Below, in pieces: positions 1 to 64,000 of a stretch of 64,000 nt of DNA. The position numbers and the translations under genes are program-made. How positions within the stretch are numbered: position 1 is the stretch's first letter; the number at the start of each line of letters is the position of its first letter. The notes under the pieces were generated by a model. The model saw nothing but the letters and a program-made list of their open reading frames with translations. It was not told the DNA's origin and did not search any database. This stretch comes from a virus, in IMG/VR virus record IMGVR_UViG_3300021963_000054, positions 32,001 through 96,000 of that record, one strand, 5' to 3'.

Positions 1-96
1 CCAAAGATTAGCATCATTCAATCTAAATTAAATAAAATGCTTGTTCTGGATGCAGATGATCCTACCAGCGTTGTTGTTAAAACTACTACAATTTAA
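1..96 (+). CDS. 3' end of upstream gene, probably baseplate wedge gp6 (partial)
   Basis: Open frame PKISIIQSKLNKMLVLDADDPTSVVVKTTTI* ends at TAA 94-96 and overlaps the next ATG (TAATG). It lies directly before gp7-gp8. Confidence 0.55.
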   Translation, partial: PKISIIQSKLNKMLVLDADDPTSVVVKTTTI

Positions 97-2885
97 TGGA
101 AAACGTTCGCACATCAAACCTGGTATCTTCACAGTTACCAGATTTCGTAAGAAGTGACTATCCAAAATTTGTCACATTCTTAGAGAAATACTATGAATGG
201 CTGGAAACTACAAATAGCGTTTCCTTTGAAATTGATGCATTACGTAATGCAAATGATATTGATAGTTCTGATGACTATTACATTGAACAACTAAAGAAGG
301 ATTTAGCTCCTTATTTTCCTCAAGAGATTGTAACCGACAAAAGACTTTTCTTAAAGTTGGTAACTCAATTTTATAAATCCAGCGGAACACAAGAATCTGT
401 TAAGTTCCTTTTCAGAGCATTGTATAATGAAAACATTGATATCTACTATCCAAAAGAAGATATTTTAAAAACTTCTGATGGTAAATGGGTTTTGCCTTTA
501 GCCCTTAGAATTGACACCAATGATAACAACATTTTCAACATTGCAAAAACTTTAATTACCGGACAAACTTCAAAAGCTACTGCTTTGGTTGAAAAAGTAA
601 TTCAATCTGTTGACCGTCAACTTGGTATTACATATACTGAAATTTATGTTTCAAACGTTCAGAGACTGTTTACAACAGGCGAAAGAATAACAGCAACGTA
701 TGTTGATGAAGATACTGGTCTAAACGTTACTGTTGGCGGTCGTTTGATTGGTGCTCTATCAGAAATAAAAATAAATCCGAACAATAGAGGTCTTTTTTAT
801 AACGCATATGATCCTGAAACTGGATATGATGGAGATCCTGTTAGTATTGTTGGTGGTTTAAACCCTGTTGCAAATACTCCAGTTGGCGCTGTTGCTTATG
901 TTGGAGTAACAACAAAGGGTGGTATTACCGATATCATTGTGGAAAAAAGTGGATTTGGATTTAGAGATCCTGCAATAAATTTGAATTCTTCAATCATTGA
1001 CTTCAAAGGCGGTTTTGCCAATACAGTTTTTGGTACAGAAGCAAAAGCCTCTATTAATCTTTTAGACACTTCAGTTTCAAGGAAATTAAATGTCTCAAAT
1101 ATGTCCATTCAAACATTACATGGTTTGCATCCAAATGTTGCAAACGTGGAAAATGTTACGGTAGCAAATGCATCAACATTTGATGCGTTCACAGTTTTTC
1201 CAATTTCATTCGTTATAGTTGATGGCTCCGGCGGTGGTTATCGTCAAAAGCCAACCGTTGAAACTTATAGTTTTTACAATGAAGACTATGATGACATTTT
1301 AGTATGTACTGCAAGAAACATCGTAGCAGGAACATCCCTTATAAATGATACTACACAAAACTTAACAGTTTCTTTTGAGACTGGTGACTATGTTAGATTG
1401 TTTATCAATAATAAATTTGAAGCAATTCGTGAAGTTTCTTCCGTAGATACGAATAATTTATATTTTGCTGAATCATTTCCTAATGATTTATCTGGAGTAT
1501 CCGTTTATAAAGTTCTAAGAAATGATTTATATAAAATCGGATCACTTGGCAGAATAACCATAAACAGTGGTGGTACAAATTACGCAAATGGCGATATTTT
1601 AATTTTTACTGGTGGTTCTGGATATGGAGCAAATGCATTTGTGAACGTTGCTCCGGGCGGCATAATTACTTCTGTAACAATGAATAATCATTCGTCAAAC
1701 GCTTTTGTTATTGGCGGCGAGGGATATAAAAGAGACTCATTGCCAACAATTACCATACAATCATCATCTGGCACAAGTGCTAATCTATCTGTCTCAGAGA
1801 TAACTGGCGATGGTGAGCAATATGGATTGACCACATCAAGAATTGGCGCAATAACATCATTGAGAGTTAGCAGTTATGGTTATGATTATGTTGAAGCTCC
1901 AACAGTCTCTTTGAGAAATGCGGACATTATATTGAATAGTGTTACAGAAGGACAATTGTTTGTTTCAAATACCTCAATTTATCAAGGCACATCAAACATT
2001 AGTTCTTCATTTAGCGCAACAGTGGATTCATATAATTCTGGAACTACAACTCTTAGAATATTTAATTATCGTGGCGTTTTTGACGCAACTAAAGTTATCA
2101 AGTCGGATGATGGAACAGTTACCGGAAATGTAACCTCATCGTTATTTTATGGTGATGGTAACGCAAAAGCTACAGCAAACTTTGAAAATGGATTGATTCG
2201 TTATCCAGGTATTTACTTGAATACTGATGGACAAATTAGTGCGGATAAGAAGTTGCAAGATGGCGAAAAATATCATAACTTCTCATACATTATTAAATCA
2301 CAAACCGACTATTCTAAGTTTAAGAAACCACTAAACGATATTGTACATCCTATTGGAACAAAAACTTTTATCACCAAGATTGACAACAATGAAGAAATGT
2401 TGGCTCAAGTTAACACTTCGTCTTTTATAACAATCACTTCACTCGCCGATACTTACAATATTGCCAATGGCTCTAATAAAATTATTACCACAAATACCAG
2501 CGCAAATCTACAGGCAACGGTTAATGTGGGCGATTTAATCCTTCTGTCAAATGTCCATAGAAGATTGCAAAATACAGTTAATGTTGTTTCAGGATCAAAC
2601 ATCTTGTTTGGTGCGGCTAACAGTGTCAATTTCATAAATGACCTGCAAGACGGCGATACGATATATTTGTCTACCGGTAATACTGTGACAATTAAAGAAG
2701 TCACCAATTCTTCTTTTGCTATACTAGACACCATAATTAATGTAACATCAACTTCAGCGACTGTTAATCTTGTTTATACTGCTACTGTCAGGGCTAATTC
2801 CAGAAATGCAAATACTATTTTTGCAAGTAGCATATTTACATCAAACGGTAGCAATTTGAGCGCAACCATTCAAAAAGTTAGATAA
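96..2885 (+). CDS. gp7: Baseplate wedge initiator, gp7-like (929 aa)
   Basis: N-terminus SQLPDFVRSDYPKFVTFLEKYYEWLE, YKSSGT..S.KFLFRALY, and C-terminal LQDGEKYHNFSYIIKS..HPIG motifs of T4-like gp7. Synteny before gp8. Confidence 0.8.
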   Translation: MENVRTSNLVSSQLPDFVRSDYPKFVTFLEKYYEWLETTNSVSFEIDALRNANDIDSSDDYYIEQLKKDLAPYFPQEIVTDKRLFLKLVTQFYKSSGTQESVKFLFRALYNENIDIYYPKEDILKTSDGKWVLPLALRIDTNDNNIFNIAKTLITGQTSKATALVEKVIQSVDRQLGITYTEIYVSNVQRLFTTGERITATYVDEDTGLNVTVGGRLIGALSEIKINPNNRGLFYNAYDPETGYDGDPVSIVGGLNPVANTPVGAVAYVGVTTKGGITDIIVEKSGFGFRDPAINLNSSIIDFKGGFANTVFGTEAKASINLLDTSVSRKLNVSNMSIQTLHGLHPNVANVENVTVANASTFDAFTVFPISFVIVDGSGGGYRQKPTVETYSFYNEDYDDILVCTARNIVAGTSLINDTTQNLTVSFETGDYVRLFINNKFEAIREVSSVDTNNLYFAESFPNDLSGVSVYKVLRNDLYKIGSLGRITINSGGTNYANGDILIFTGGSGYGANAFVNVAPGGIITSVTMNNHSSNAFVIGGEGYKRDSLPTITIQSSSGTSANLSVSEITGDGEQYGLTTSRIGAITSLRVSSYGYDYVEAPTVSLRNADIILNSVTEGQLFVSNTSIYQGTSNISSSFSATVDSYNSGTTTLRIFNYRGVFDATKVIKSDDGTVTGNVTSSLFYGDGNAKATANFENGLIRYPGIYLNTDGQISADKKLQDGEKYHNFSYIIKSQTDYSKFKKPLNDIVHPIGTKTFITKIDNNEEMLAQVNTSSFITITSLADTYNIANGSNKIITTNTSANLQATVNVGDLILLSNVHRRLQNTVNVVSGSNILFGAANSVNFINDLQDGDTIYLSTGNTVTIKEVTNSSFAILDTIINVTSTSATVNLVYTATVRANSRNANTIFASSIFTSNGSNLSATIQKVR

Positions 2886-2893
2886 ATAGAAAC

Positions 2894-4222
2894 ATGTCAG
2901 CACTCTTAACTAAAAATTTCAAAATTTTGATGGCAGAGCAAGTCTATAACCTGTTGGACTTGGGTGCAAATTCATACTTGCCCGCCGAAAAAAAATCTTA
3001 TATGTATGCCTTTTTTGGTAGACATTTACCATGGAATTCAGGCACTGAGGTAGAAGGAAGTCCTTCGGAAACCGATGCGGCTATAAATGATTACTACAAG
3101 CGTGGTGTTCTTGCAAAACAAATATCTTTAGAAAACGCATCTCTTGTTATTCCAAGAAATGATTGGGTTTCAAATACCGTATATAACACGTATGAAGCCA
3201 ATACAAATTTTTATGTAATAAATTCTAAGGATCAAGTTTTTAAGTGTCTTTCAAATGTTTCGCCAGGTACAGCTTCTACAGTATCACCAGAATTGACGCT
3301 ATCAACAACATCACTAGAAGAACCTTATGTTGAGACTTCCGATTTTTACAAATGGAAGTACATGTACACATTAACATCTGTACAGAAACAAAAATTCTTA
3401 ACTGATGATTGGATGCCAGTATCAGTAAACAAGTTTGTACGAGCCGCAGCCGAACCAGGCTCAATTGATATTGTGACTGTAACAAATTCTGGTAATAATT
3501 ACACAGTTGGTACTGTACAAAACATCATTACGATTGATGGCGATGGAACAGGTGCAGTATTGAAAGCCAACGTTTCTGGTGGTAAAGTACAAAATATAGT
3601 TATTCAAAATCGTGGAAATTATTACACTTATGCCAATCTAACTTTTACTGATGTTACTGGTGGAATAGGAACATTGGCGACTGCTGAAGTCTCAATCGCT
3701 CCACATAATGGTCATGGTTATGAGCCCGCTTATGAGTTGGGTGGTTCTACAATAATGTTTAATGTGGAATTTGACCAAGATGAGGGTGGAGTATTACCTG
3801 TGGATAATGATTTCCGTGAAGTTGTCATTTTACGAAATCCATACAAATATGGCACAACATCATTAGCCACCGCACAAACATATTCTTTATACACTCTTAT
3901 TAAAGTGTCGCCAGGTGTTGGTGATTTTAATAATGACGAAGTTGTTTATCAGGGAGCAACATACGGCAGTGCGACATTTACGGCTGACGTAATTTCATTT
4001 AGTGAAACACCAAACTTATTGTATCTAAACAATGTTCGTGGAACATTACAAACAAATCAAGCGATTAGAGGTTTGCAAACCGGCGCTATTCGTATCGTAA
4101 ATTCCGTAACAAATCCAACTCTCGATTTGTACTCCGGAAAGATATTATACATATCAGATAAATTACCAATTACAAGAGATCCAGCCCAAACCGAACGAAT
4201 TCGTTTCATTTTGAGTTTCTAA
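2894..4222 (+). CDS. gp8: Baseplate wedge subunit gp8 (442 aa)
   Basis: Motifs VIPRNDW, FYVINS..VFKCLSN, YKWKYMYT and C-terminal SGKILYI...ITR..QTERIRFILSF. Confidence 0.9.
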   Translation: MSALLTKNFKILMAEQVYNLLDLGANSYLPAEKKSYMYAFFGRHLPWNSGTEVEGSPSETDAAINDYYKRGVLAKQISLENASLVIPRNDWVSNTVYNTYEANTNFYVINSKDQVFKCLSNVSPGTASTVSPELTLSTTSLEEPYVETSDFYKWKYMYTLTSVQKQKFLTDDWMPVSVNKFVRAAAEPGSIDIVTVTNSGNNYTVGTVQNIITIDGDGTGAVLKANVSGGKVQNIVIQNRGNYYTYANLTFTDVTGGIGTLATAEVSIAPHNGHGYEPAYELGGSTIMFNVEFDQDEGGVLPVDNDFREVVILRNPYKYGTTSLATAQTYSLYTLIKVSPGVGDFNNDEVVYQGATYGSATFTADVISFSETPNLLYLNNVRGTLQTNQAIRGLQTGAIRIVNSVTNPTLDLYSGKILYISDKLPITRDPAQTERIRFILSF

Positions 4223-4233
4223 ACGAGGAATAA

Positions 4234-10392: not shown

Positions 10393-10394
10393 TC

Positions 10395-30612: not shown

Positions 30613-32142
30613 ATGGCATCTAATCAAGACTTTATTGTAAAAAACGGTTTAACAATCGGCAGCTCACAAGTAATTGCCGCTAACGGTCGTTGGGTTGGTG
30701 TCAGCACAGGATTAATTGGTCCTCAAGGCGCACAGGGAGCCCAAGGTTCTCAAGGCGCAACAGGACCGACCGGACCTCAGGGAGCACAGGGAGCAACAGG
30801 TGGAACTGGTCCCACTGGTCCTCAAGGCGCTCAAGGTGCAACTGGAGGAACTGGACCAACTGGACCTCAAGGTGCTCAAGGAGCACAAGGTCCCGCTGGA
30901 CCAACTGGACCACAAGGCGCACAGGGAACACAAGGCGCACAAGGAAGTGCTGGACCTCCTGGTCCTACTGGTGCACAGGGACCAACTGGCGCACAGGGAC
31001 CAACTGGTGCTCAAGGTCCGACAGGTGCTACAGGACCAACAGGTCCAAGCAGCTGGTCAGCAATACCTGCTGGTACTAGAACCAACTATGATTTAAAATT
31101 TCAACCCAACAATGCTGACTATGCAGGATTTCAGTTTTTAAACGATGCTGGCTCGGGAGCTGGGTATCTGTTAGTTCGGTCTACTTCATCCGATAGCTTT
31201 CCACCCTATACAGCGGGCGGAATAACGCTTGTTTCAGACGTTGGCGGGTTAAACTTTTTTGCGAGAAGTGGAACCCAACTTGTAAGGATGGGGACGGGAA
31301 GCACCGAAACCTTTAGGCTCGAATCAAATTATTCACTGTCTATCAACAGCTCCCGTGCACCAATCTTCTACGACTACAACAACACTGGGTATTACACTGA
31401 CCCAGCCAGCACGTCAAATATGTATAATATAACTGTTCGTTCTGGCAGTCCATACGCAGCCGTTACAGATTTAGGATATGTATCTCCTATACAAGTCAGC
31501 GAAACAGGAACAGGAACAAACTCAGACCGATATGTTCCGATGATTTCAGGAACATCAACATCTTCTTCAGGTTATAGACAACATACTGTTTTTGGTTCTT
31601 TAAGAGGTTCTGTTTGGGGTTCCGCTTTTATTGCAGTTGGTGGTAACGACTCTTATCCGACTGTAGCATACACTTTTCACTATACTGGATATGGAACTGC
31701 TCCAGATTCTTGGAGAGCACCAATCTTCTACGACTCCAACAACACCGGGTATTACACTGACCCAGCCAGCACATCAGTTTTGAATGGACTAACAGTTGGT
31801 GGTGGAACTATTGCAACAACATCAGGCTCTCCTTCATACTATATGGCTAGAGCATGGGTAAATTTTGACGGTGCGGGAAGCATCCGGGCGCAAGTTAACG
31901 TGTCATCAATTTCTAAAAGTACTACAGGTACGTACCAAATAAATTTTGCAACTGCAATGCCAGATGCAAACTACGTAATGTCATATTCAAATAGCTATTT
32001 GTCGCCCGCATCTAACTCAAATGCTCCAGGCGGTGCGGCGGCGCCATACACGGCTTCGGTCGGAAGTGTTTGCTCTTACCAATCACAAGCGGTAGGAAAT
32101 TTAACTGATAATACTTATCAGTTGGTAGTAGTTTATAGATAA
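30613..32142 (+). CDS. Collagen-like fibre protein 2 (MASNQDF family, 509 aa)
   Basis: Long Gly-X-Y tract (about 30718-31050), two [18 protein letters not shown] repeats, and C-terminal [26 protein letters not shown]. Confidence 0.85.
31357..31776 (+). repeat. 60-nt direct repeat pair (31357-31416, 31717-31776)
   Basis: 57/60 nt identical. Encodes [20 protein letters not shown]. Confidence 0.9.
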
Positions 32143-32697: not shown

Positions 32698-34102
32698 TCA
32701 AGACTTCATCGTAAAGAACGGCCTCACAATAGGCAGTTCACAAGTAATTGCAGCCAATGGTCGCTGGGTTGGTGCTAACACAGGACTTTTTGGTCCTCAA
32801 GGCGCAACAGGACCTCAAGGCGCACAGGGAGCAACTGGTCCAACCGGCGCTCAAGGTCCTACTGGTCCAACTGGCGCACAGGGAGCAACTGGTCCCACTG
32901 GTCCTACTGGTCCACAAGGCGCACAGGGTCCAACAGGAAGTACTGGACCAACTGGACCTCAAGGAGCACAAGGCGCACAGGGAGGTGCTGGACCAACAGG
33001 ACCTCAAGGAGCACAGGGACCAACTGGCGCTACGGGACCAACGGGACCCACTGGACCTTCTGGCGCATCAATCTTAGGATCAAGCAATACTTGGACAGGT
33101 GGAAATTACTTTCGTTCTAATTTGGGAGCAACTTCCGGAAGTTTAAATAGTCCACCTTTACAAGCATATTCAGATAGCAATAACTCTGCTTTTATGTCTT
33201 TTCACAAAGGTGGAGTATATGCAGTAAACATGGGACTGGACTCCGATAACATATTGCGTATTGGTGGTTGGTCTGCTTCAGCGAATCGTTGGGAATTGGA
33301 TATGTCTGGAAACAATTGGGCAGCCAGTTCGTTCAGAGCAACAAGCTGGTACTACTCCAGTGACACCGCATATGGATTTATCGGGACTAACGTATATGCA
33401 GATACAATTAATTCTGGCGTGGGTGGCGACCAATTAGAATTATGTTATTACAGAGGTTCATTTACTTCTTCATCTGGTAGTATGCGAGCACCTTTGTTTT
33501 ATGATAGAGATGACACTGGATATTATCTTGATCCAAATACTACAAGCGATTCTGCATTGAGAATTCGTGGCGGTGCTTTACATGGTCCAAATCCTACTTG
33601 GGGATCTTACCTTTTAGTTGGCGGTGATGGAAGACAGAATTATACTAACAGCGGTTCAGTAGCATCTGTTTGTTCAACAAATGGCAATTTGCACATGGAT
33701 GCAGCCTCTGGTTATCAAATGTACTTAAACTATTATGATGGCGACGGAATTAACTTTGGTAATGGCGCAAATGGTGTTCACAGCACCTTATCTAGCGCAG
33801 GTAACCTTGCATTGGGCGGGACAGTAACGGCCACAAACCTTATCGGACAGTCTCAAACTTGGCAAAATGTGGTGGGCAGCAGGGCGGCAGGCACCTTGTA
33901 CACCAACAGCACATCACGTCCAATAACCGTAATAATTTGCTGTGCTTATGGGCAAAGTAATATGACTGTGTATGTTGACAGTGTGGCGTTTCTTGTAACA
34001 GGTCCATATGGAAACAGCGTAATTTTGTCTGCAACACTAATTGTTCCACCAGGATCTACATACAAGGCAGATAGTGTAAGTTATTGGATGGAACTTCGCT
34101 AA
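32687..34102 (+). CDS. Collagen-like fibre protein 3 (MASNQDF family, 471 aa)
   Basis: Gly-X-Y tract (about 32792-33066) and C-terminal QTWQNV..SR..GT.YTN.T.RPI.V..IVPPG.TY..W.ELR fibre tip. Confidence 0.85.
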
Positions 34103-34787: not shown

Positions 34788-35360
34788 ATGAACGGCGAAT
34801 GGGCTTACTTCAAAAGTAGATTTACCAAAGAGCAATGTGATTTCATTTTAGATGAAGGTCTAAAGTTACCTTCTAAAAAAGCATCTATGGGTGTTTCAGA
34901 TGAAATTGTGGATGATGATTACCGAAGAAGTGAGATTCGGTTTATTCATCAAGAACCCAAATTCCAATTTCTCTTTGATGAGATTTGGAAAATGGCAATT
35001 CAAGCAAACCACGACTTCTTCAATTTTCATATTAGCAGATTAAGTTTTGTACAACTTGCTGAATATTCATCCGAATATCAAGGCGAATATAAAAGACACC
35101 ATGATGTGTTTTGGATGAATGGTGATCCACACTTTCATAGAAAACTTACATGTGTAATCCAGTTGACTGATCCGACAACTTATGAAGGTGGTGATTTTGA
35201 GATGTATGACTTGTCGCAAAATTCTCCAGATAAGGAAGAAATACGACAACAAGGTACGGCAATATTTCTTCCATCTTTCATAAGTCACGCAGCCTTGCCA
35301 GTGACAGAAGGAACAAGACATTCATTAGCAGTATGGATGGAAGGTCCTAAGTGGAGATAA
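34788..35360 (+). CDS. 2OG-Fe(II) oxygenase, prolyl-4-hydroxylase/PKHD-like (190 aa)
   Basis: HxD (HHD), RKL, YEGG, distal H (SHA) and R-x-S (TRHS) motifs. Confidence 0.9.
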   Translation: MNGEWAYFKSRFTKEQCDFILDEGLKLPSKKASMGVSDEIVDDDYRRSEIRFIHQEPKFQFLFDEIWKMAIQANHDFFNFHISRLSFVQLAEYSSEYQGEYKRHHDVFWMNGDPHFHRKLTCVIQLTDPTTYEGGDFEMYDLSQNSPDKEEIRQQGTAIFLPSFISHAALPVTEGTRHSLAVWMEGPKWR

Positions 35361-35361
35361 T

Positions 35362-35916
35362 ATGAAAACAAATATGATTGTGGTTGATGAGTTCTATAAT
35401 AATCCAAATGATGTAAGAGAGTTTGCTTTAGCACAAGAGTTTGGTGTTACTGGTAATTGGCCAGGTTCTAGAACAAAAACTTTTATCAATGAAAGCACAA
35501 AAGAAACCATACAAAAAATACTCCAAGATGTATCTGGAAATGTTACAGACTGGCAAGCAAATGATGGTTATACAGGAAGTTTTCAACTAACAACTTCAAT
35601 GGATAGAAGTTGGATTCATGCTGATTCATACAACACTTGGGCAGGCGTTTTGTATTTGACTCCTGATGCTCCACTATCTGGTGGTACAGGAGTTTTTAGA
35701 TATAAGAAAACAGGAAGCATGACAGAAGATGGCACAGATTTATCCGGCGTCACACAAGATATGACTAAGTGGGAACTTGTTGATAGAGTTGGAAATGTTT
35801 ACAATAGATTAGTATTGTATCGTGGAAACAATTATCATATGTCTTTAGATTACTTCGGCAAAGACAAAGAAGATGGTAGACTGTTTCAACTATTTTTCAT
35901 AACAACAGAATATTGA
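35362..35916 (+). CDS. 2OG-Fe(II) oxygenase, DUF6445-like (184 aa)
   Basis: VVD.FY.NP..VR..AL, IHAD, AGVLYL.P, GGT, NRLVLY, distal H and R-L-x-Q. Confidence 0.8.
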   Translation: MKTNMIVVDEFYNNPNDVREFALAQEFGVTGNWPGSRTKTFINESTKETIQKILQDVSGNVTDWQANDGYTGSFQLTTSMDRSWIHADSYNTWAGVLYLTPDAPLSGGTGVFRYKKTGSMTEDGTDLSGVTQDMTKWELVDRVGNVYNRLVLYRGNNYHMSLDYFGKDKEDGRLFQLFFITTEY

Positions 35917-35917
35917 T

Positions 35918-36673
35918 ATGAAAATATGCAGAGTTATCTTTTCTACAAACAGACCAGAATTCTTAATACCGACTTTAGAATCACACCAAAAGTATATTGA
36001 CTTTGGTGACCATGAAGTTTATGGCATATTCATAGATGACTATCCAAAAGATAGAGATGATAAACTTATTGTAGAGTTAGCCAAAAAATATGGATTCAAT
36101 GAAGCAGTTCTTCATACAGAGAATCTTGGTTTAACACCAACTTGGACAGAGTTATGGAATTATCTAGCCACACAAGATTATGATTACATCTGGCACCATG
36201 AGGATGATGTAGTCTTTGGTGCACCAATCAAAATACAAACTCTGATAGATTTTCTGGAAGAAAACAAAGAGTTTTGTCAAGTCAATCTAAAGCGAAATCC
36301 ATGGTATGATTTTGAATTGAACAAACCAGCAATCACATGGGAAGACAAATTCTTTAGGGAGTACCGATATGATGTTAGGGATGACTATTTCTGGACAATG
36401 GCATCATTGTATCCAGCTTGGGTAACAAAAGAGCCAGTAAAAGAAGTTGAAGATTGCAATTTGGCTGAATATCCAGTGATGAAATATTTCAAAGAGCAAT
36501 ATAAGATGAAGATGGCCATTCTTAAGAATCAAGACGGAAGCAATCTTGTGGAACATATTGGAGTATATTCCCAAGGCAAAAGAGTGCTTGAGGGTGAGCC
36601 AGGATGGGAAGGTTTTAAGTGGTTTGATCCTAATAAAAAATATGATTCCAAGACTGGTGCCTTAATAGTATAA
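35918..36673 (+). CDS. GT-A fold (family 2-like) glycosyltransferase (251 aa)
   Basis: N-terminal strand + NRP..L..TLES, IFIDD, YIWHHEDD (DxD-like) and distal HIG. Confidence 0.75.
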   Translation: MKICRVIFSTNRPEFLIPTLESHQKYIDFGDHEVYGIFIDDYPKDRDDKLIVELAKKYGFNEAVLHTENLGLTPTWTELWNYLATQDYDYIWHHEDDVVFGAPIKIQTLIDFLEENKEFCQVNLKRNPWYDFELNKPAITWEDKFFREYRYDVRDDYFWTMASLYPAWVTKEPVKEVEDCNLAEYPVMKYFKEQYKMKMAILKNQDGSNLVEHIGVYSQGKRVLEGEPGWEGFKWFDPNKKYDSKTGALIV

Positions 36674-52047: not shown

Positions 52048-52052
52048 AGAAT

Positions 52053-52610: not shown

Positions 52611-52613
52611 ATA
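52606..52613 (+). promoter_or_regulatory. T4 late promoter TATAAATA
   Basis: Exact consensus just before gp3. Confidence 0.7.
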
Positions 52614-52618
52614 TACGT

Positions 52619-53158
52619 ATGGCAACTACACCAACATCTAGCACTCCACTAAATCAGAATTTTTTACACCCAAATAAGTTTCAATTAACTTTTTCACGGG
52701 TGCCAAACATTCAATATTTCTGTCAAGCGGTATCAGTACCAGGCATATCTATGGGAGAAGTACCAGTATCTACACCATTCGTAGAAAAGTATTCTCCTGG
52801 TGAAAAAGCAATTTATGATATGCTCAATGTTACATTTGCTATTGACGAAGAAATGCGTTCATGGATTGAGATACACGATTGGATTCGTGCTATGACATTC
52901 CCAGAAGACTTTGAACAATACAGAGAATTGCCTAGATTATCTAAAAATTTTGGTAATCCAAAGACGCCACAATTTTCTGACGCAACACTTACCATATACT
53001 CATCTGCATTTACACCACTTTACAGATTTAAGTTTGTAGATGTATTTCCAACATCACTGGCATCTTTCATGTTAGCATCACAAGATACACCAGAAAATAT
53101 TCTAACATCTGATGCATCTTTCAGATATACCTACTACACTATTGACAAAATGTTTTAA
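52619..53158 (+). CDS. gp3: Tail completion protein gp3
   Basis: N.NFL.PN.F, YFCQ....PG, F..DE.M..W.EI..W, SDATL and F...FP.SL. Confidence 0.9.
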   Translation: MATTPTSSTPLNQNFLHPNKFQLTFSRVPNIQYFCQAVSVPGISMGEVPVSTPFVEKYSPGEKAIYDMLNVTFAIDEEMRSWIEIHDWIRAMTFPEDFEQYRELPRLSKNFGNPKTPQFSDATLTIYSSAFTPLYRFKFVDVFPTSLASFMLASQDTPENILTSDASFRYTYYTIDKMF

Positions 53159-53170
53159 TTGATGTATACT
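53142..53170 (+). promoter_or_regulatory. Sigma70-type promoter upstream of uvsY
   Basis: TTGACA-N17-TATACT followed by RBS AAGGAGG. Confidence 0.8.
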
Positions 53171-53189
53171 CCTACAAGGAGGAATTGTA

Positions 53190-53624
53190 ATGACTAAACT
53201 TGAAGAATTGATGAATGAATGGGCTAAAGATTCCCAGATTGATAGAACTGAGCCAGGTAAAGCACTAATTGATATACCACAGCTTCATAGCAAGTATCTG
53301 AACATTCTATCACGCCACAAGTTGCTTTGTAAAGAAGCTGACTTCAAATATTCCCGGATGAAGAAAATTAAATGGGAATACTATACTGGTAAGATGGGCG
53401 ATGATGATTTGCAGAAGTATGGCTGGGCACCATTTCCATTCACAATCAAGTCTGAAATTACCACATACATGGAAGCAGATGAGGACTTGAATAAATTCAT
53501 AGCATCTAGAATGATACATGAAGAAATCGTTAATTGCTGTGAGTTGATTTTGAAAGAACTACATAGTAGAACATTTCAACTTAAATCATTTATTGATTGG
53601 GAACGGTTCGTTCAAGGTGTCTGA
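53190..53624 (+). CDS. uvsY: Recombination mediator UvsY
   Basis: W.KDS.ID, IP.LHSKYL, EYYTGK, Y..AD.D and R..Q.K..IDW.RF. Confidence 0.92.
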   Translation: MTKLEELMNEWAKDSQIDRTEPGKALIDIPQLHSKYLNILSRHKLLCKEADFKYSRMKKIKWEYYTGKMGDDDLQKYGWAPFPFTIKSEITTYMEADEDLNKFIASRMIHEEIVNCCELILKELHSRTFQLKSFIDWERFVQGV

Positions 53625-55083
53625 TTTAATTATTAGTAAAGTGAACGAGGCTTATATAAAACTAGAGTGTGAGAAAAGCCTCGCTCAAGAAATATCTGAC
53701 CATTTCACATTTCATGTGCCGGGTTATCAATTTACTCCAGCGTACAAGAATAGATTGTGGGATGGTAAGATACGTCTTCTTGATTTAAGAACATACTGCA
53801 TGTACTATGGTTTGATACCATACATACAAAAGTTTTGTGATGATAGAAATTACAAGATATATTATTACCCAGAAGTTAACTTAACCAACAACTTCTCAAT
53901 TAAAGAAGCAGAACAATTTGTTTCTACATTAAATTTACCTATTGTTCCAAGAGATTATCAACTATCATCTTTTGTTCATGCAATAAGAAACAAACGTTCA
54001 TTGCTTCTTTCACCAACTGCATCGGGCAAATCTCTTATTCTTTATTTGATTCTACGCAAGATTCAAGATGAAGACCACAAGAAAGGTTTGTTGATTGTAC
54101 CAACAACATCTTTGGTAGAACAGATGTACTCAGATTTCAAATCATACGGATATGATTCGGAAACAAACTGCCATAAACAATACGCAGGTAAAGATAAAAA
54201 CACAGACAAGTTTTTAACCATCACAACTTGGCAATCTATCTACAATCGTGAACCAGAATACTTTGAACAATTTGATTTTGTTCTTGGTGATGAAGCACAT
54301 CAATTCAAAGCTAAATCATTAGCTACAATTATGGGTGGTCTTACAGAAGCCAAGTATCGTATAGGTTGTACTGGTACACTTGATGGTACACAAACACACA
54401 AACTTGTACTTGAAGGTTTGTTTGGTGCTGTGTTGAAAGTAATAACTACCAAAGAATTGATTGACAACAAACAACTTGCAGATTTCAAAATAAAATGTCT
54501 GATACTCAAATATCCAGAAGAAGTATGTAAGCAAGCTAGGTCTTGGGACTATCAATCCGAGATAGAATACATAGTTATGAATGCACAAAGAAATGCATTC
54601 ATTAAAAATTTAGTTTTGTCATTAAAAGGAAACTCTCTAGTTCTCTTTCAATTGGTTGAGAAACACGGTAAAGAATTGTTTAAGTTGATAGACGCTGAAA
54701 AGGGAAATCGTAAAGTATTTTTTGTTTACGGAGATACAGATGTTGAAGTCAGAGAATCAATTCGTGCTATTACAGAAGAAGAAAATGATGCTATTATTGT
54801 GGCATCTTATGGCACTTTTAGTACTGGCGTTAACATTCGCAACCTACACAACGTCATCTTTGCTTCTCCATCTAAATCTCGCATTCGCAATTTGCAGTCC
54901 ATTGGTCGTGGATTACGAAAGGGCGACAACAAAGAATCAGCAGTCTTATTTGACATTTCAGACGATTTTAGAATAGGCAAGTTTACCAATTTTACCTTGA
55001 AACATTTTGTGGAACGTGTTAAAATATATGAAGATGAGAAGTTCACTTACAAGTTTTACAACATAGAGTTAAAAAATGCATAA
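53617..55083 (+). CDS. uvsW: DNA helicase UvsW (start revised to GTG 53617)
   Basis: WDGKIRL, PRDYQ, SPTASGKS, DEAH and QSIGR.LR superfamily 2 motifs. Confidence 0.96.
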   Translation: MSDLIISKVNEAYIKLECEKSLAQEISDHFTFHVPGYQFTPAYKNRLWDGKIRLLDLRTYCMYYGLIPYIQKFCDDRNYKIYYYPEVNLTNNFSIKEAEQFVSTLNLPIVPRDYQLSSFVHAIRNKRSLLLSPTASGKSLILYLILRKIQDEDHKKGLLIVPTTSLVEQMYSDFKSYGYDSETNCHKQYAGKDKNTDKFLTITTWQSIYNREPEYFEQFDFVLGDEAHQFKAKSLATIMGGLTEAKYRIGCTGTLDGTQTHKLVLEGLFGAVLKVITTKELIDNKQLADFKIKCLILKYPEEVCKQARSWDYQSEIEYIVMNAQRNAFIKNLVLSLKGNSLVLFQLVEKHGKELFKLIDAEKGNRKVFFVYGDTDVEVRESIRAITEEENDAIIVASYGTFSTGVNIRNLHNVIFASPSKSRIRNLQSIGRGLRKGDNKESAVLFDISDDFRIGKFTNFTLKHFVERVKIYEDEKFTYKFYNIELKNA

Positions 55084-55492: not shown

Positions 55493-55512
55493 TTGCAGAC
55501 CCCACAGGGTGT

Positions 55513-55541
55513 ATTGTACGCACGACACTGGCGGTTGTCAA
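55513..55541 (-). promoter_or_regulatory. Antisense sigma70-type promoter
   Basis: Minus strand TTGACA (55541-55536) - N17 - TACAAT (55518-55513) in the intergenic gap before gp55. Confidence 0.7.
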
Positions 55542-55559
55542 GTGTTATTTTAGGAAATA

Positions 55560-56123: not shown

Positions 56124-56136
56124 TTTATGGAGTATA

Positions 56137-56589
56137 ATGATGCTAGTATTGCCTGATAATATGATTGGTAAGCCTGTTGGTTTTACTTGTTCCACTTTTG
56201 ATTTGCTACATGCTGGTCACATTCTGATGTTAGCCGAAGCAAAATCAATCTGTGATTACCTAATTGTTGCGTTGCAGATGGATCCATCAATTGATAGACC
56301 AGAATCTAAAAACAAACCAGTTCAGTCTATTGTTGAACGATATGTCCAACTTTCCGCTGTTAAATTTGTAGATGAAATTATTGTGTACCAGACAGAGAAA
56401 GATTTGGAAGATATGTTGATGTTCTTGCCAATTACAATACGAATTATTGGTGAAGAATACAAAGACAAAGATTTTACTGGTAAACAAATTTGTGAAGATA
56501 GAGCAATTAAAATTTTCTACAACCAACGCAGACATAGTTTTTCAACAACCGAATTACGTAAGAGAGTGGCTAATAAAAGTACACTATGA
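56137..56589 (+). CDS. Cytidylyltransferase, glycerol-3-phosphate (TagD)-like (150 aa)
   Basis: FDLLHAGH (HXGH), K.KP.QS..ER and R.HSFSTT. Confidence 0.88.
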   Translation: MMLVLPDNMIGKPVGFTCSTFDLLHAGHILMLAEAKSICDYLIVALQMDPSIDRPESKNKPVQSIVERYVQLSAVKFVDEIIVYQTEKDLEDMLMFLPITIRIIGEEYKDKDFTGKQICEDRAIKIFYNQRRHSFSTTELRKRVANKSTL

Positions 56590-57656
56590 AGATTGCTTTA
56601 ATTAATGATACACATGCTGGCGCACGTGGTGATAGTTTATTGTTCAATGAGTTCTTTTTTAAATTCTGGGAAGGTACATTCTTTCCATACCTAAAAGAGA
56701 ATAACATAACTCAGATTGTGCATCTTGGTGATGTAGTTGATAGACGCAAATTTATCAACTACGTCATTTTGAATTCTTGGCGTAAACGATTCTTTGATGT
56801 GCTTGAAAAAGAAAACATCAAGATGGATATCATCGTTGGTAACCATGATGTGACATACAAGAACACAAACGAAATTAATGCTATGCATGAATTGTTTGAT
56901 AGGTATGATAACATCAATGTGTTTATTGATCCTGTTGAAAGAACTTATGATAGTCTTCCAATCGCATTGGTACCATGGATCAATTCATCCAACTACGAAA
57001 ATTCACTTCAGTTTTTGCGTGATACAAAATCGGAAATTGTTTTTGGGCACTTTGAGATTTCTGGTTTTGAGATGGACAGAGGTAATGTTTGTCATGCTGG
57101 ACTAGATAAGAAAATCTTTGACAGATTTGATATGGTTCTATCTGGACACTTTCATCACAAGTCTTCGGATGGTACAATTCATTATCTTGGTAATCAATAC
57201 GAAATTACCTGGACAGATTACAATGATCCGAGAGGCTTTCATATCTTTGATACCGAGACAAGAGAGTTGACATTCGTTTCAAATCCGTGTAGAATGTTCT
57301 ACAAGATTAGCTATGATGATGAATCACAATCGTTTGAGTACTGGAAAGCATATGAATTCTCGGTACACAAAGACACTTATGTTAAAGTGGTTGTGGTAAA
57401 CAAAACAAATGCTTATCTTTTTGATTATGTGCTTGAGCAATTAAACAAAGCTGGTGTATCCGATGTGGCTGTGGTAGAAGATTTTTCTGATACCACAATA
57501 GATGATGACCAAGAACTAGTTGACCAAGCGGAAGATACCATGACTATTCTTTCCAAGTATATTGATGGGTTGACACTTGATGTAGATTCTGATAAACTAA
57601 AGAATCTAATGCGTGAGTTATATGTTGAATCTTTGAATGTTGAAGTGACTGAATGA
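56586..57656 (+). CDS. gp47: Recombination nuclease gp47 (Mre11/SbcD-like)
   Basis: DTH.G, LGD..D, GNHD and SGHFH phosphoesterase motifs. Confidence 0.96.
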   Translation: MKIALINDTHAGARGDSLLFNEFFFKFWEGTFFPYLKENNITQIVHLGDVVDRRKFINYVILNSWRKRFFDVLEKENIKMDIIVGNHDVTYKNTNEINAMHELFDRYDNINVFIDPVERTYDSLPIALVPWINSSNYENSLQFLRDTKSEIVFGHFEISGFEMDRGNVCHAGLDKKIFDRFDMVLSGHFHHKSSDGTIHYLGNQYEITWTDYNDPRGFHIFDTETRELTFVSNPCRMFYKISYDDESQSFEYWKAYEFSVHKDTYVKVVVVNKTNAYLFDYVLEQLNKAGVSDVAVVEDFSDTTIDDDQELVDQAEDTMTILSKYIDGLTLDVDSDKLKNLMRELYVESLNVEVTE

Positions 57657-59365: not shown

Positions 59366-59949
59366 ATGATAATGATATTTTAGTTATTGATACTGGAGCA
59401 AAAGCTCCAACCAAAGTTGTAGAAGAACAGATTCTTCCACTGTCTATTTTAACAGAAGGTAATCCAATTCTAAAAACACCAGTTGAAGAATTTGATATGT
59501 CGCAAGTCATGCAACCAGAAATTCAAAAATTTATTAAGCAGTTGAAGTTGACAATGAAAACCTACAATGGTGTTGGACTGTCAGCGAATCAATGTGGTTT
59601 TAAGTTTAGAATGTTTGTTATTGGTACAGACCAATTTCAGATGACTTGTATCAATCCAAGAATTATTGATGTTGATGGTGAACCAAAACTAATGCGTGAA
59701 GGTTGCTTGTCATATCCAGCGTTGTTTGTTGGCGTACCTAGATATGAAGGTATTCTTGTACATTACTATGATGAATACTCACAGCCAAAAGAATTGTGGT
59801 TGCGTGGTATTACCGCACAATGTTTCCAACATGAATTGGAACATCTTGATGGTAAAGTATTTCTTGAAAGAGTTAAGCCTCTTGCTATGCAGATGGCAAG
59901 AAAACGTCAAACTAAATTGATTAAGAAGATTGTAAGGAAATCAAAATGA
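59362..59949 (+). CDS. def: Peptide deformylase
   Basis: GVGLSANQ, EGCLS and QHELEHLDG motifs. Confidence 0.95.
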   Translation: MNDNDILVIDTGAKAPTKVVEEQILPLSILTEGNPILKTPVEEFDMSQVMQPEIQKFIKQLKLTMKTYNGVGLSANQCGFKFRMFVIGTDQFQMTCINPRIIDVDGEPKLMREGCLSYPALFVGVPRYEGILVHYYDEYSQPKELWLRGITAQCFQHELEHLDGKVFLERVKPLAMQMARKRQTKLIKKIVRKSK

Positions 59950-60317
59950 GCGATATAAAAGTTCAAGAAACAACTGAGTATGAGAGTTGTCTTGATTTTG
60001 AGAGTGATGATATCAATGATGTTTCTAAATTTATGGATGGTGAAGAAACACAAGAAGAAAAACTTCCTATAGTTGAAGTTGATGATTCGTTGCTTACCAG
60101 AGACCAATTCTTCAAGAAGTATTGGAAAGGTATGCCGACTTTTGACCAGAATGATAATCCACCTTGGAAACAACTTTATGTTAACTTCCGAAATGAAGAA
60201 GATTATCTAGCATTTGCTAAGTTGATTGACCAAGCACTATCAGATAAGAGTAAAAGTATTTGGTATCCAAAACTTGACGTAGAAGAAAACTCATTGAATC
60301 GTTGGATTGTAGAATGA
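59946..60317 (+). CDS. Small acidic protein coupled to the glycosyltransferase (123 aa)
   Basis: W.GMP.F.Q....V.F...ED...F...I.Q.....KSIWYP pattern. ATGA overlaps at both ends. Confidence 0.75.
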   Translation: MSDIKVQETTEYESCLDFESDDINDVSKFMDGEETQEEKLPIVEVDDSLLTRDQFFKKYWKGMPTFDQNDNPPWKQLYVNFRNEEDYLAFAKLIDQALSDKSKSIWYPKLDVEENSLNRWIVE

Positions 60318-61219
60318 TTAACCCTAAGTATCCAGTTTATATTATCTCTAAAGGTCGGCATGAATCCATGTTGACTTCTCGGTCACTCGCTCGTATGAAA
60401 GTTCCTCATTACATTGCAATTGAACCACAAGACCTAGACAACTATGAGAAAGCATTGGATGAATTTAAGATTCGCCCATATGTTACATTGCTAGTTGCGC
60501 CATTCAGTAATCATGGCGATGGTCCTGGTCGTGCTAGAAATTGGTGTTGGGATCATGCGATTGAAATTGGTGCAGAAAAGCATTGGGTACTAGATGATAA
60601 CATTTCTGATTTCTACCGTTTGAATCAGAACAAACGATACCGTGTAGAATCTGGTGCTATCTTCCGAGCCGCAGAAGATTTTGTTGACCGCTTTGAGAAT
60701 GTGCCAATCTCTGGCTTTCAGTATCGTTTCTTCATTGCACCAAATTCAAAGTATCCTCCTTTCGTAACTAACACACGAATCTATTCTTGTTTGCTTATCT
60801 CTAATGATTGCAAACATCGTTGGCGTGGTAGGTACAATGAAGATACTGATATCTGTCTCCGCGTATTGAAAGATGGTGATTGCACTATTCAATTCAATGC
60901 ATTCTTGCAAGGTAAAGCGGCTACACAAACAGTTAAGGGTGGTAACACCGAAGAATTCTATCATAAAGAATTTGCTGACCAAGACGAAAACTTTAAGAAG
61001 ACTGGTTACAACAGTAGTGGCACAATCAATAAGTCTCAGATGCTTGCAGATATGCATCCAGATGTTGCAAGAGTTGTTTGGCGTTATGGTCGTTGGCATC
61101 ATTATGTTGACTATAATCCATTCAAGGTAAACAAACTGCGAATGAAAGCTGATGCTGTAATTCCAGAAGGCAACAACGAATATGGAATGAAGTTGATTCG
61201 TAATTGGAAAGCAGATTGA
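60314..61219 (+). CDS. TET/JBP-associated (GREB1-like) glycosyltransferase, putative DNA base modifier (start revised to 60314)
   Basis: YPVYIISKGR, EPQD...Y, G.G.ARN..W, HWVLDDNI, RIYSC.L, WRG.YNEDTD..L..L and K..T....GGN. Confidence 0.78.
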   Translation: MINPKYPVYIISKGRHESMLTSRSLARMKVPHYIAIEPQDLDNYEKALDEFKIRPYVTLLVAPFSNHGDGPGRARNWCWDHAIEIGAEKHWVLDDNISDFYRLNQNKRYRVESGAIFRAAEDFVDRFENVPISGFQYRFFIAPNSKYPPFVTNTRIYSCLLISNDCKHRWRGRYNEDTDICLRVLKDGDCTIQFNAFLQGKAATQTVKGGNTEEFYHKEFADQDENFKKTGYNSSGTINKSQMLADMHPDVARVVWRYGRWHHYVDYNPFKVNKLRMKADAVIPEGNNEYGMKLIRNWKAD

Positions 61220-62073
61220 TGAGTATTGTTGATGAAATAGGCAAAGAGAGTCTAAAGCGGTATCTTGAAAACTGTGCTAAGGTTGCAGACATAGATATTG
61301 AGGCGGCATTCAAAGTCACATTGAATTGTATGAAAGCGCATGATGGCGCAATCATACCAGATGATGATATGCGTCAAATGAAAGACCTTGAGAACAGATG
61401 GTATGCATCATTGGAAACAGGAACGCCAGACTATTCTGTTTACTCTGATGCTTATTATTTCTGCGAAGTGTGGATGTGTTGGACAAAATACTCTAGAAGG
61501 TATCTCAAAGAAATCAATGCGCCAAAGTCTATGTTTGGTAAAAGTATAGTTGAATACATTGGTAATGTTGACAATGTGGTTGACTTGGGATGCGGTTTCG
61601 GTTATACTACAGTTGGTATGAAAGAATTGTTTCCCAACTCCAATGTCTATGGTACAAATCTAAAAGATAGTTACCAGTACAAGATGGCAACAGAGTTGGG
61701 TGACAAACACAATTTCAAAATCATTGAGAATCTTACTCAAGTTGAAAAGCCAGGAACAAGTTTGTTTTTTGCTTCCGAGTACTTTGAACACTTTGACAGA
61801 CCGATTGAACATTTGATTGATGTGATTGAACAAGGCTCACCAACTTATATGTTGATTGCTAACACATTCAACGGAAGAGCCATTGGTCACTTCAATCAAT
61901 ACAAAGATTGTACCGAAGTCTATGATGGAAAACAAATGGGAAGATTGTTCGGAAAAACACTCAGAAAATATGGATACGAAAGTGTTAACACAGATTGTTG
62001 GAATAATAGACCAGCTTTTTGGCAGAGAAAAGATAGTTGTTTTTTAACAACAGAGAACTTTAGTAATACTTGA
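61219..62073 (+). CDS. Class I SAM-dependent methyltransferase (start revised to 61219)
   Basis: VVDLGCGFG motif I and ASEYFEH. TGATG coupling to the glycosyltransferase. Confidence 0.8.
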   Translation: MSIVDEIGKESLKRYLENCAKVADIDIEAAFKVTLNCMKAHDGAIIPDDDMRQMKDLENRWYASLETGTPDYSVYSDAYYFCEVWMCWTKYSRRYLKEINAPKSMFGKSIVEYIGNVDNVVDLGCGFGYTTVGMKELFPNSNVYGTNLKDSYQYKMATELGDKHNFKIIENLTQVEKPGTSLFFASEYFEHFDRPIEHLIDVIEQGSPTYMLIANTFNGRAIGHFNQYKDCTEVYDGKQMGRLFGKTLRKYGYESVNTDCWNNRPAFWQRKDSCFLTTENFSNT

Positions 62074-62097
62074 CATTCGTTCTGGTCCTGATATACT
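62070..62097 (+). promoter_or_regulatory. Sigma70-type early promoter with extended -10
   Basis: TTGACA-N16-TATACT, with TGn directly before the -10. Confidence 0.75.
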
Positions 62098-62122
62098 TGT
62101 ATCTGTAGTTAGAAGGAACATC

Positions 62123-64000
62123 ATGCAGTTTACCCAAGAATCCAAATCTCAATTAGCCAAGTTGATGGCTACCGAAAACCTCACCGTTGAACACCGAAAA
62201 GTATCTACGGCTTCCTTTAATCTTAAGGACCGTGTTCTTACTCTCCCAATCTGGAATGATATGTCTGGCGAAATGTATGATTTACTTACCGGGCATGAAG
62301 TTGGTCACGCATTAGAAACGCCAGAAGAAGGTTGGCACAATGCCGTCATGGGCACTGGCAAATTTGATAAGAATTTCAAAAACTTCCTTAATGTGGTTGA
62401 AGATGCCCGCATTGAGAAAAAAGTCAAACGCCGTTTTCCCGGCTTGCGCCAATCGTTTGTCAAAGCATACGGTCAACTATTAGAAAAAGATTTTTTCGGT
62501 ATCAAGTATCGTAATGTGAATGCTTTGCCTTTCATTGACCGCTTGAACCTTTACACTAAAGGTGGTGTCTCCCTCGGCATTCAATTCAACAATGAAGAAA
62601 CCAAAATGTTAGCCGATGTTGAATCGTGCGAAACGTGGGAAGATGTTGTCCGTATTACCGAAGCAATTTTTGACTATTCAAAAACCGAACAAAAAGAATT
62701 GCAACAAGAAAAAATTCGCCAACTGAATTCATTCTATGATGATGAAGATGGCGATTATGAAATGGACATGGACAGCAATGATGATTCTTCCAATGATGAA
62801 GAAGAAAATCAGAAAGATGGTCAGTCACAAGATGGTGAAACTGAAAAAGAATCATCCGATGGTGAAGATACAGAAAAATCTGAATCTGGTAAATCAGATT
62901 CCGACTCGGAAGAAACATCAGAAGAACAGCCAGAAAAAAGCAATACCATTGAACGTGATAAAGAATCACATGATAGTACCAGTGAAAATTCTGACTTTGA
63001 ACCAGTTTGTGAAACCGATGAAAAGTTTCGTGAAAACGAAAGTCAATTGTTGGACAGGTCTTGCAAAGAATATCTGTATGTGAATTTGCCAACACCTATC
63101 TTTTCAGAAATTCTTACACCATACAAACGTGTGCATGAATTGATGGAAAACTTTTGGAATGACCGCCTTGACAATCGTAAAGATATCCAAAATAATTTGC
63201 TCCGCGATTTCAAAAACAAGAATGACCGGTATGTTTCTTTGCTTGCAAAAGAATTTGAAATGCGTAAAGCCGCATCAAAATTCTCTCGCCAAAAAGTTTC
63301 TGAGACTGGTGATATTGACGTTAGCCGTATCTATAAATACCAAGTTGATGACAATATTTTCCGCAAAGCTACCTTTGTACCAAAAGGCAAATCGCATGGT
63401 TTAGTTTTGTTGCTTGACCGTTCAGGTTCAATGCAAAGCAATATGTCTTCATCATGGGAACAAATTTTGGTTCTCGCAATGTTTTGCCGCAAAGTGAATA
63501 TTCCTTTTGTTGTTTATGGTTTCGGTAATGATGATAGTACTTTTCAACATGACCATGGTCGTTTTAATCATAGGTCATTTTCAGAAAATGTAAACGAATT
63601 GTCTGGTTCGAATGTTTTCTTGCGTGAGTATTTGAATTCTAAAATGAGTGCAAGTGAATTTACTCGGTGTACCAAAAATATTCTGGCTTTGGCTAGCAGT
63701 TATGATTATCGTAATTATCGTAGATTTTCAACACCTAGTTCTGAAACTTTATCAAATACTCCAATGACGGAAGCAATGATTGCATTGAAGCCTTTGACAG
63801 AACAATTCCGTAAAGTGAACAATCTTGATATTGTTAATACTGTTATCATGCACGATGGTGATGCCGACAGAATTGGCGCTGTGGTTGGTGAACGTACTGA
63901 CTACAATGGTAAATCATATCTTGGAAGAACGGGTATCGGTAACGATACATACAACCTTGTGTTGCGTGACAAGAAAAATAAATTTGAAGAATTGATGCGT
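62123..64000 (+). CDS. HEXXH metallopeptidase-like / vWA (CobT-like) protein, 3'-truncated; absent from the ORF track
   Basis: MQFTQESKSQLAKLMATENL..GHEVGHAL..NVVEDARIEK, an acidic linker, then LLLDRSGSM (MIDAS) in the same frame. RBS AAGGA. Confidence 0.85.
   Translation, partial: MQFTQESKSQLAKLMATENLTVEHRKVSTASFNLKDRVLTLPIWNDMSGEMYDLLTGHEVGHALETPEEGWHNAVMGTGKFDKNFKNFLNVVEDARIEKKVKRRFPGLRQSFVKAYGQLLEKDFFGIKYRNVNALPFIDRLNLYTKGGVSLGIQFNNEETKMLADVESCETWEDVVRITEAIFDYSKTEQKELQQEKIRQLNSFYDDEDGDYEMDMDSNDDSSNDEEENQKDGQSQDGETEKESSDGEDTEKSESGKSDSDSEETSEEQPEKSNTIERDKESHDSTSENSDFEPVCETDEKFRENESQLLDRSCKEYLYVNLPTPIFSEILTPYKRVHELMENFWNDRLDNRKDIQNNLLRDFKNKNDRYVSLLAKEFEMRKAASKFSRQKVSETGDIDVSRIYKYQVDDNIFRKATFVPKGKSHGLVLLLDRSGSMQSNMSSSWEQILVLAMFCRKVNIPFVVYGFGNDDSTFQHDHGRFNHRSFSENVNELSGSNVFLREYLNSKMSASEFTRCTKNILALASSYDYRNYRRFSTPSSETLSNTPMTEAMIALKPLTEQFRKVNNLDIVNTVIMHDGDADRIGAVVGERTDYNGKSYLGRTGIGNDTYNLVLRDKKNKFEELMR

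Follow-up and report, generated by a model that had tools for sequence, protein, structure and literature searches.

Conditional avoidance of restriction sites, relieved beside GG/CC steps, in a T4-like aquatic myophage and its relatives

We examined 64,000 nucleotides of viral DNA (hereafter, the window), which span positions 32001-96000 of the 104,951-bp linear IMG/VR contig IMGVR_UViG_3300021963_000054 (G0), a contig estimated to be 61% complete. Our subject is the distribution of GATC and other short sites in this DNA, which persist almost only where a site edge forms a GG/CC step, together with the genes that might be responsible. Pfam and PHROG scans of G0 identify the T4 core genes gp23, gp20, gp18, gp19, terminase, UvsY, UvsW, gp46/47, gp45/44/62, RegA, gp32, gp59, and gp55, and G0 also encodes PhoH, peptide deformylase, CobS, and Hsp20. 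In gp23, it shares about 63% identity with cyanomyophages and with the Pelagibacter phage HTVC008M, and a megablast search of G0 against isolated phages returned no match. These genes place G0 among the T4-like aquatic myophages, in the pelagimyophage/cyanomyophage group.

The window contains 77 GATC sites, and every one is GGATC or GATCC (GGATCA, 20; GGATCT, 14; GGATCC, 5; TGATCC, 24; AGATCC, 11; CGATCC, 3), with no instance of [ACT]GATC[AGT]. The original prediction, made by eye, had put the number at about 75, each with a 5' G or a 3' C, and named two examples whose positions are correct (Table 1). Its rough values of 38% GC and 220 expected sites also lie close to the computed 38.5% G+C and 214 (Markov) or 223 (composition) sites. 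Across the whole contig, 124 of 124 GATC sites are flanked, meaning here that the terminal G or C of a site has a second copy of itself on the outside (GGATC or CCGCG, for example), which places a GG/CC step across the edge. As a null model, we permuted synonymous codons inside each of 120 open reading frames, keeping proteins and codon usage. The shuffled contig is expected to hold 291 GATC sites, about 44% of them flanked by chance, rather than the third that had been assumed. Unflanked GATC is absent against 163 expected, with all nine unflanked hexamer classes at zero, whereas GGATC/GATCC occurs 133 times against 141 expected and is neutral (flanked observed/expected, 0.94 to 1.04). This count of NGATCN hexamers, which we also ran on related genomes, upholds the proposed division of G0 sites into purged unflanked and near-neutral flanked forms. 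Codon choice agrees with what had been remarked for Asp before Gln, Arg, and His: before a C[AGT] codon and with no G preceding, Asp is encoded 98 times by GAC and never by GAT, compared with a GAT share of 76% among Asp codons elsewhere. GAT is retained before Pro (CCN; 50 of 61, 82%) and after G (11 of 18, 61%).

Three further motifs in G0 follow the same rule. Contig-wide, CGCG is found only as CCGCG/CGCGG (29 of 29 sites), CGWCG only as CCGWCG/CGWCGG (15 of 15), and GCWGC as GGCWGC/GCWGCC at 62 of 63 sites, with GCAGCC over-used (51 versus 21 expected) and GCAGCA depleted (4 versus 64). Pooled over the four motifs, 230 of 231 sites are flanked. Relative to the shuffles, unflanked sites number 1 instead of 371.5, sites flanked by exactly GG/CC are neutral (213 versus 194.5), and those flanked only by a GGG/CCC run fall short (11 versus 25.3, a ratio of 0.44). 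Short-site avoidance in the contig, given here and below as observed/expected counts under the codon-aware expectation, includes CGCG (29/90), GCWGC (63/156), and 18 hexamer palindromes at zero; TCGA, whose edges are A/T, stands at 21/222 and shows no rescue. AGCTC is reduced to 21/111, 16 of the 21 survivors being AGCTCC, and GAGTC shows a weaker trend toward the same rule. The hexamer palindromes with at least 4 G/C divide likewise. The 17 that lack a GG/CC step have a median observed/expected ratio of 0.00 (for example, AGCGCT 0/9, TGCGCA 0/10, CGTACG 0/6.5, and GAGCTC 0/9.5), while the 13 that contain one have a median of 0.62 (GGCGCC 6/7.6, CCATGG 15/15, GGATCC 9/12, and CCGCGG 9/4). These counts confirm a conditional avoidance, in which the same site is purged unless its edge forms a GG/CC step, as a rule that is general, very strong, and real.

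We assessed how far this rule extends in related IMG/VR records, namely, G1 (108.7 kb, 91% nucleotide identity to G0), G2 (162,299 bp, complete with terminal repeats), G16 (IMGVR_UViG_3300043399_000371; 168 kb, complete, T4-like), G18 (IMGVR_UViG_3300010158_000028; 161 kb), G20 (214 kb, complete), G21, and G22. In G1, the flanked forms make up 39 of 39 CGCG, 56 of 58 GCWGC, 6 of 6 CGWCG, and 123 of 149 GATC sites, and the 26 unflanked GATC sites are all nonpalindromic hexamers. The observed/expected ratios for unflanked and flanked sites in G2 are 0.37 and 0.95 for GATC, 0.32 and 0.86 for CGCG, and 0.47 and 1.09 for GCWGC; its CGWCG counts are 0/47 unflanked and 4/24 flanked. The unflanked GATC of G1 and G2 is found only as AGATCA, AGATCG, and CGATCA, with TGATCA, AGATCT, and CGATCG at 0 to 4 and GGATCC near neutral. 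G18 adds a fifth motif, GTAC, at 1/214 unflanked and 277/302 flanked (GGTAC/GTACC). Median observed/expected ratios for hexamers with the step are 0.62 in G1, 0.88 in G2, 0.94 in G20, 0.97 in G21, and 0.63 in G18, and those for hexamers with at least 4 G/C but no step are 0.00, 0.10, 0.18, 0.30, and 0.22, respectively; the contrast is significant in all five genomes (P = 8e-6 to 2e-3, with P = 8e-6 in G2). Two T4-like genomes serve as negative controls. G16 lacks the step-bearing hexamers as well (GGATCC 0/19, GGTACC 0/19, CCATGG 0/21, and ACCGGT 0/18), with nearly all 32 hexamer palindromes of at least 4 G/C at or near zero and the A/T-rich ones mostly neutral, and GATC is entirely missing from G22 (flanked, 0/86). 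The edge-doubling rule is thus shown to be confined to certain phage lineages. A separate pattern involves GGCC, which survives mainly or only as GGGCC/GGCCC in Synechococcus phage DSL-LC03 (OR003938; 0/22 otherwise versus 16/12 in this form), Paraglaciecola virus GD1 (MW805361; 1/50 versus 42/19), and the SAR11 podophage Bylgja (MT375520; 11/17 versus 41/16). Overlapping methylation of the GGNCC type would fit these three cases.

The rule is also present in a cultured phage. HTVC008M (KC465899; 147,284 bp), a Pelagibacter myophage isolated on "Candidatus Pelagibacter ubique" HTCC1062, has 83 GATC sites, all of them GGATC or GATCC (unflanked, 0/193; flanked, 83/124). GGATCC is over-used in this genome (28 versus 12 expected), and TCGA (2/195) and CGCG (1/33) are depleted. 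We found no report of its GATC pattern in the literature searched. Five SAR11 podophages that avoid GATC provide a control on the host side: HTVC011P (KC465900) and HTVC019P (KC465901), both from HTCC1062, and HTVC168P (OR420735), Ran (MT375530), and Bylgja, from other SAR11 strains. They contain no GATC, GGATC included, although each would be expected to keep 27 to 35 flanked sites (about 150 pooled). These podophages purge the flanked sites too, indicating that GGATC is among the sequences cut by the GATC-directed activity of SAR11 populations. The two podophages from the same strain as HTVC008M retain 0 flanked sites against 35 (HTVC011P) and 28 (HTVC019P) expected, and thus the host supplies no protection for GGATC. 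Taken together, the cutting of GGATC and the lack of host protection make the rescue a property of the myophage lineage. GGCC is purged in four of the five podophages (0 versus about 45), while Bylgja keeps 52. GATC, GGCC, TCGA, and other sites are completely purged in SAR11 phages of two families, so strong sequence-specific DNA cleavage must act on SAR11 phages. HTVC010P (KC465898) does not avoid GATC, with 131 sites.

The original prediction read the pattern as modification of the first C of CC or of the paired second G of GG. Every sequence test that we ran favors a protection that is linked to GG/CC and specific to the phage; that part of the reading stands, and a covalent DNA mark at GG/CC steps, whose existence, position, and chemistry we infer, probably explains the rule. 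The link to GG/CC is supported by four unrelated palindromes in the contig and GTAC in G18, which obey one edge-doubling rule, and by the persistence of step-bearing hexamers, with the others purged, in six related genomes. The phage specificity is supported by G16, G22, and the five podophages, all of which purge flanked sites too. Under the mechanism that we propose, virion DNA would carry a covalent mark at about 70 GG/CC steps per kb, or about 18% of G:C pairs, made after replication by a phage-encoded enzyme other than a canonical DNA methylase. The mark would probably be borne by the 5' C of CC or by the G opposite it, and it would probably be bulky. Where the marked pair is outermost within a site (GGATC, GGCWGC, GGTAC, and GGNNCC hexamers), the host type II enzyme would be fully blocked, even by a one-sided mark; where it falls just outside the site (CCGCG and CCGWCG), or where the site is GGCC, the block would be partial. 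Unprotected copies of host-cut sites would then be removed by selection, mainly via synonymous codon choice.

The position of the proposed mark is suggested by an asymmetry among the motifs. In G0, one flank is enough for G-edged sites (observed/expected, 1.00 for GATC and 1.50 for GCWGC) and only partly so for C-edged sites (0.67 for CGCG and 0.37 for CGWCG), for which two-sided flanks are enriched (1.96 for CGCG and 4.3 for CGWCG). The one-sided flank of CGWCG is likewise weak in G1 (0.23) and G2 (0.17). This asymmetry is consistent with a mark carried by the base pair in which the 5' C of CC faces the 3' G of GG; this pair lies inside GGATC but outside CCGCG, by one position. To act from beyond a site edge, a mark is more likely to be a bulky group than a methyl. 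CCC runs have a weaker effect, which suggests a CCD-like context.

Several observations weigh against the proposed mark. CGCG is not rescued in G18 (1/16 even when flanked), G21, or HTVC008M, all of which rescue GATC. CTGCAG shows no rescue in the contig (2/30), and the nonpalindromic GACATC/GATGTC is absent contig-wide against 26 expected, again without rescue; an enzyme that cleaves at a distance probably recognizes it. GGCC contains the step on both strands and is still depleted, to 0.30 in the contig (GGGCC, 0.17) and to 0.3 to 0.6 across the myophages. Set against its full loss in podophages, this range reads as a protection of GGCC that is partial at most. Finally, profiles for C5 (PF00145), N4/N6 (PF01555), and D12 (PF02086) methylases, TET/JBP (PF12851), ThyA-type (PF00303), TGT/DpdA (PF01702), and DndC-type (PF01507) proteins all lack a match in the complete G2, and the three methylase families, the ones tested there, are likewise absent from HTVC008M and the complete G20.

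We weighed a covalent base mark made after replication against four other explanations. The common GATC enzymes cleave as ^GATC, and Hpy99I as CGWCG^. With these cut positions, the scissile bond in G^GATC and CGWCG^G is itself the GpG step, so a phosphorothioate-like GpG (or CpC) phosphodiester could block the cut at the boundary and leave a nick to be resealed. Such a backbone mark would also agree with the lack of rescue at GGCC (cut GG^CC) and at GACATC, of the far-cutting type. Bacterial Dnd/Ssp systems offer a likeness, with known GpsG and CpsC contexts (PMC6435447) and phosphorothioate bonds that resist nucleases. We nevertheless consider a backbone mark unlikely. Phosphorothioation in those bacteria is partial, in contrast to the near-complete marking needed here, and no DndC/SspD-type PAPS-reductase domain or other Dnd/Ssp-type gene was found in G0, G1, G2, G3, or G4. 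ACCGGT, TGGCCA, CGGCCG, and GCCGGC, in which the step is internal and known enzymes cut elsewhere, are near neutral in G2, G20, and G21 and purged in G16. Known enzymes for GTAC, GCWGC, and CGCG mostly cut within the site, and a backbone mark does not predict the asymmetry between G-edged and C-edged sites. It is quite unlikely, in our view, that all C (or all G) is instead replaced before replication, with a single modified base tolerated and an adjacent pair (CC/GG) blocking cleavage. Full replacement would dispense with a sequence-specific DNA-modifying enzyme, none of which was found in the complete genomes, and G0 and G2 encode MazG-type, dGTP-diphosphohydrolase-type, and sugar-nucleotide enzymes as well as several glycosyltransferases. 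However, a search of G0, G1, and G2 found no thymidylate-synthase-type hydroxymethylase or hydroxylase, and no dCTPase-type pathway was recognized; GGCC would be expected to be blocked; and sites that are C free or G poor are purged as strongly, so replacement gains nothing in explanatory power.

The remaining alternatives place the specificity in methylases or in the restriction enzymes themselves. Several separate methylases (for GGATC, CCGCG, GGCWGC, CCGWCG, GGTAC, and so on), or intrinsic flank preferences of the enzymes, might coincide. Single cases can be explained in this way, such as GGCC in DSL-LC03 and GD1 by a GGNCC methylase, and HTVC008M alone has a clean rule for GATC only. A coincidence of this kind is very unlikely, as five motifs and about a dozen hexamers must all share one geometric rule and no methylase genes were found in the complete genomes; as for flank preference, the podophages, G16, and G22 show that host enzymes cut the flanked forms. 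We give the lowest probability of all to an orphan CC methylase of the host that marks phage DNA in each cycle, with the protection carried over to the next cell. It would account for the failure to find a phage DNA methylase and for the patchy occurrence of the rule among related phages. On the other side, the podophages HTVC011P and HTVC019P gain no such protection in the same strain, SAR11 metagenome-assembled genomes show GAWTC methylation only (PMC8919816), and the neutral frequency of flanked sites requires that nearly all of the roughly 7,000 steps in each genome copy be marked. The podophage control led us to reject both host carry-over methylation and enzyme flank preference.

The covalent mark at GG/CC steps that we favor resembles several known systems in part. 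7-Deazaguanine (made through DpdA, as in phages 9g and CAjan) and the Mom modification of phage Mu affect only a fraction of one base in a short context and resist many, but not all, restriction enzymes. They are alike in being partial, context-limited modifications of one base; unlike the GG/CC rule, their contexts are GA/GGC (CAjan) or longer (Mom), and no TGT/DpdA domain (PF01702) was found in 16 related records, including the complete G2. Classical restriction-site avoidance in phage genomes (for example, PMC6286503) shares the purging of host type II sites by selection but differs in that, in G0, one and the same site stands at its neutral frequency wherever a GG/CC step is present at the edge. 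We found no report of such conditional avoidance in the literature searched. M.CviPII and M.CviQIX, which are chlorovirus enzymes, methylate C5 at the first C of CC/CCD (PMC9636781), so that almost every CC receives a virus-encoded mark on its leading cytosine, and the position proposed here and the weak effect of CCC would fit such a CCD-like specificity. These enzymes belong to PF00145, however, which has no match in G0, G1, G2, G18, G20, or HTVC008M. CviQIX-methylated DNA also resists HaeIII, whereas GGCC is still depleted in G0, and the rescue of CCGCG and CCGWCG would be hard to attribute to an M.CviPII-type methyl just outside the site. Phage clusters of C5 methyltransferase, TET, and glycosyltransferase act at GpC[C/T] and require both a C5 methyltransferase and TET (PMC8256090; bioRxiv 10.1101/2023.12.21.572611). 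Like the mark that we propose, theirs is a post-replicative, context-limited, bulky cytosine modification, and the window encodes a TET-associated glycosyltransferase (TAGT). Its neighbor is a class I methyltransferase of the small-molecule type, with no C5 methyltransferase or TET/JBP dioxygenase adjacent; both enzymes are absent from G0, and the rule also holds in genomes without a TAGT. Since the defining gene of each known system is absent, we file the rule under none of them.

It is possible, at somewhat less than even odds, that abundant T4-like phages of SAR11-type hosts, HTVC008M included, carry a hitherto unseen modification at essentially every GG/CC step, made by an enzyme outside the known families, and that restriction pressure in SAR11 is very strong. 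If a GG/CC mark exists, then a partial, sequence-specific modification and its position can be read from genome sequence, also in uncultured viruses. Its enzyme would be of an unfamiliar kind because the complete genomes that follow the rule have no canonical DNA methylase genes (and G2 has no TET, DpdA, or Dnd). HTVC008M, being in culture, makes the idea directly testable. SAR11 is considered nearly devoid of restriction systems, yet SAR11 phages purge sites completely. On the ground that only 1 of more than 100 SAR11 genomes has a restriction-modification system, a study of pelagimyophages argues for the host surface as the target of the phage glycosyltransferases (PMC7029224).

We searched for the determinant among genes of the window and of the genomes that follow the rule (Table 1). 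One candidate, for DNA glycosylation, is a coupled cassette that encodes a 123-amino-acid (aa) protein, the TAGT, and the S-adenosylmethionine (SAM)-dependent class I methyltransferase, the last with 889 homologs that carry Methyltransf_23/11/12 domains. The 123-aa protein has no family and no solved relative, only unnamed viral clusters. Between G0 and G2, the three proteins are 89, 97, and 95% identical, respectively, compared with 44 to 76% for their neighbors, which indicates a recent exchange between lineages. The cassette is missing from HTVC008M and from the complete G20, both of which follow the rule (a profile search for PF20691, made in G20 only, also found nothing), and it therefore cannot be the cause; TAGT-bearing loci L034 and L079/L081 also show no rescue. 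A small cytidylyltransferase-like (RfaE-II-like) gene occurs in six metagenomic genomes with the rule and is missing from two without it, but its absence from HTVC008M leaves it as a weak lead that we rejected as the determinant. Two 2-oxoglutarate (2OG)-Fe(II)-type oxygenases and a GT2 glycosyltransferase are possible modification genes, with distant homologs in genomes both with and without the rule.

Table 1. Sites and genes discussed in the text
Feature	Sequence	Coordinates	Strand	Details
Flanked motif counts	window	1..64000		GATC 77/77, CGCG 15/15, GCWGC 44/45, CGWCG 10/10 flanked
Surviving site GATCC	window	58..62	+	contig position 32058
Surviving site GGATC	window	1539..1543	+	contig position 33540
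Sole unflanked site among 231 sites of four motifs, GCAGC	window	31049..31053	+	caaGCAGCtgg
Two 2OG-Fe(II)-type oxygenases and GT2 glycosyltransferase	window	34788..36670	+	PF13640, DUF6445
Small cytidylyltransferase-like (RfaE-II-like) gene	window	56137..56586	+	PF01467; phrog_7878
123-aa protein, TAGT, and class I SAM methyltransferase, coupled	window	59946..62070	+	PF20691, E 4e-47; phrog_842
TAGT	window	60302-61216		PF20691, E 4e-47
Cassette counterpart	G2	52669-54775		
DUF6267 gene	G2	74137-75372		PF19782
DUF6267 gene	HTVC008M	104818-106050		PF19782
MazZ-like N-terminal domain	G0 contig	98999-99355		PF18909, E 3.5e-34

By tblastn and profile search, a DUF6267 gene is the sole gene common to all genomes that follow the rule and missing from G16 and G22. 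We rejected it as the determinant, since it is also present in P-TIM40 and S-H38, both without rescue. Its KWDG and EGFV pattern suggests a ligase-like nucleotidyltransferase; a profile search against solved structures gave no match, and the predicted model is poor (mean predicted local distance difference test score, 54). In one viral Atlas cluster (760-aa representative), DUF6267 is found in 61% of members and a cytidylyltransferase-like domain in 18%, a mix that suggests fused DUF6267/cytidylyltransferase-like forms. G2 encodes a deoxy-sugar pathway and several glycosyltransferases, and DNA glycosylation is thus conceivable. Outside the window, G0 encodes a MazZ-like dATP/dGTP diphosphohydrolase N-terminal domain that adjoins an Anp1-like glycosyltransferase.

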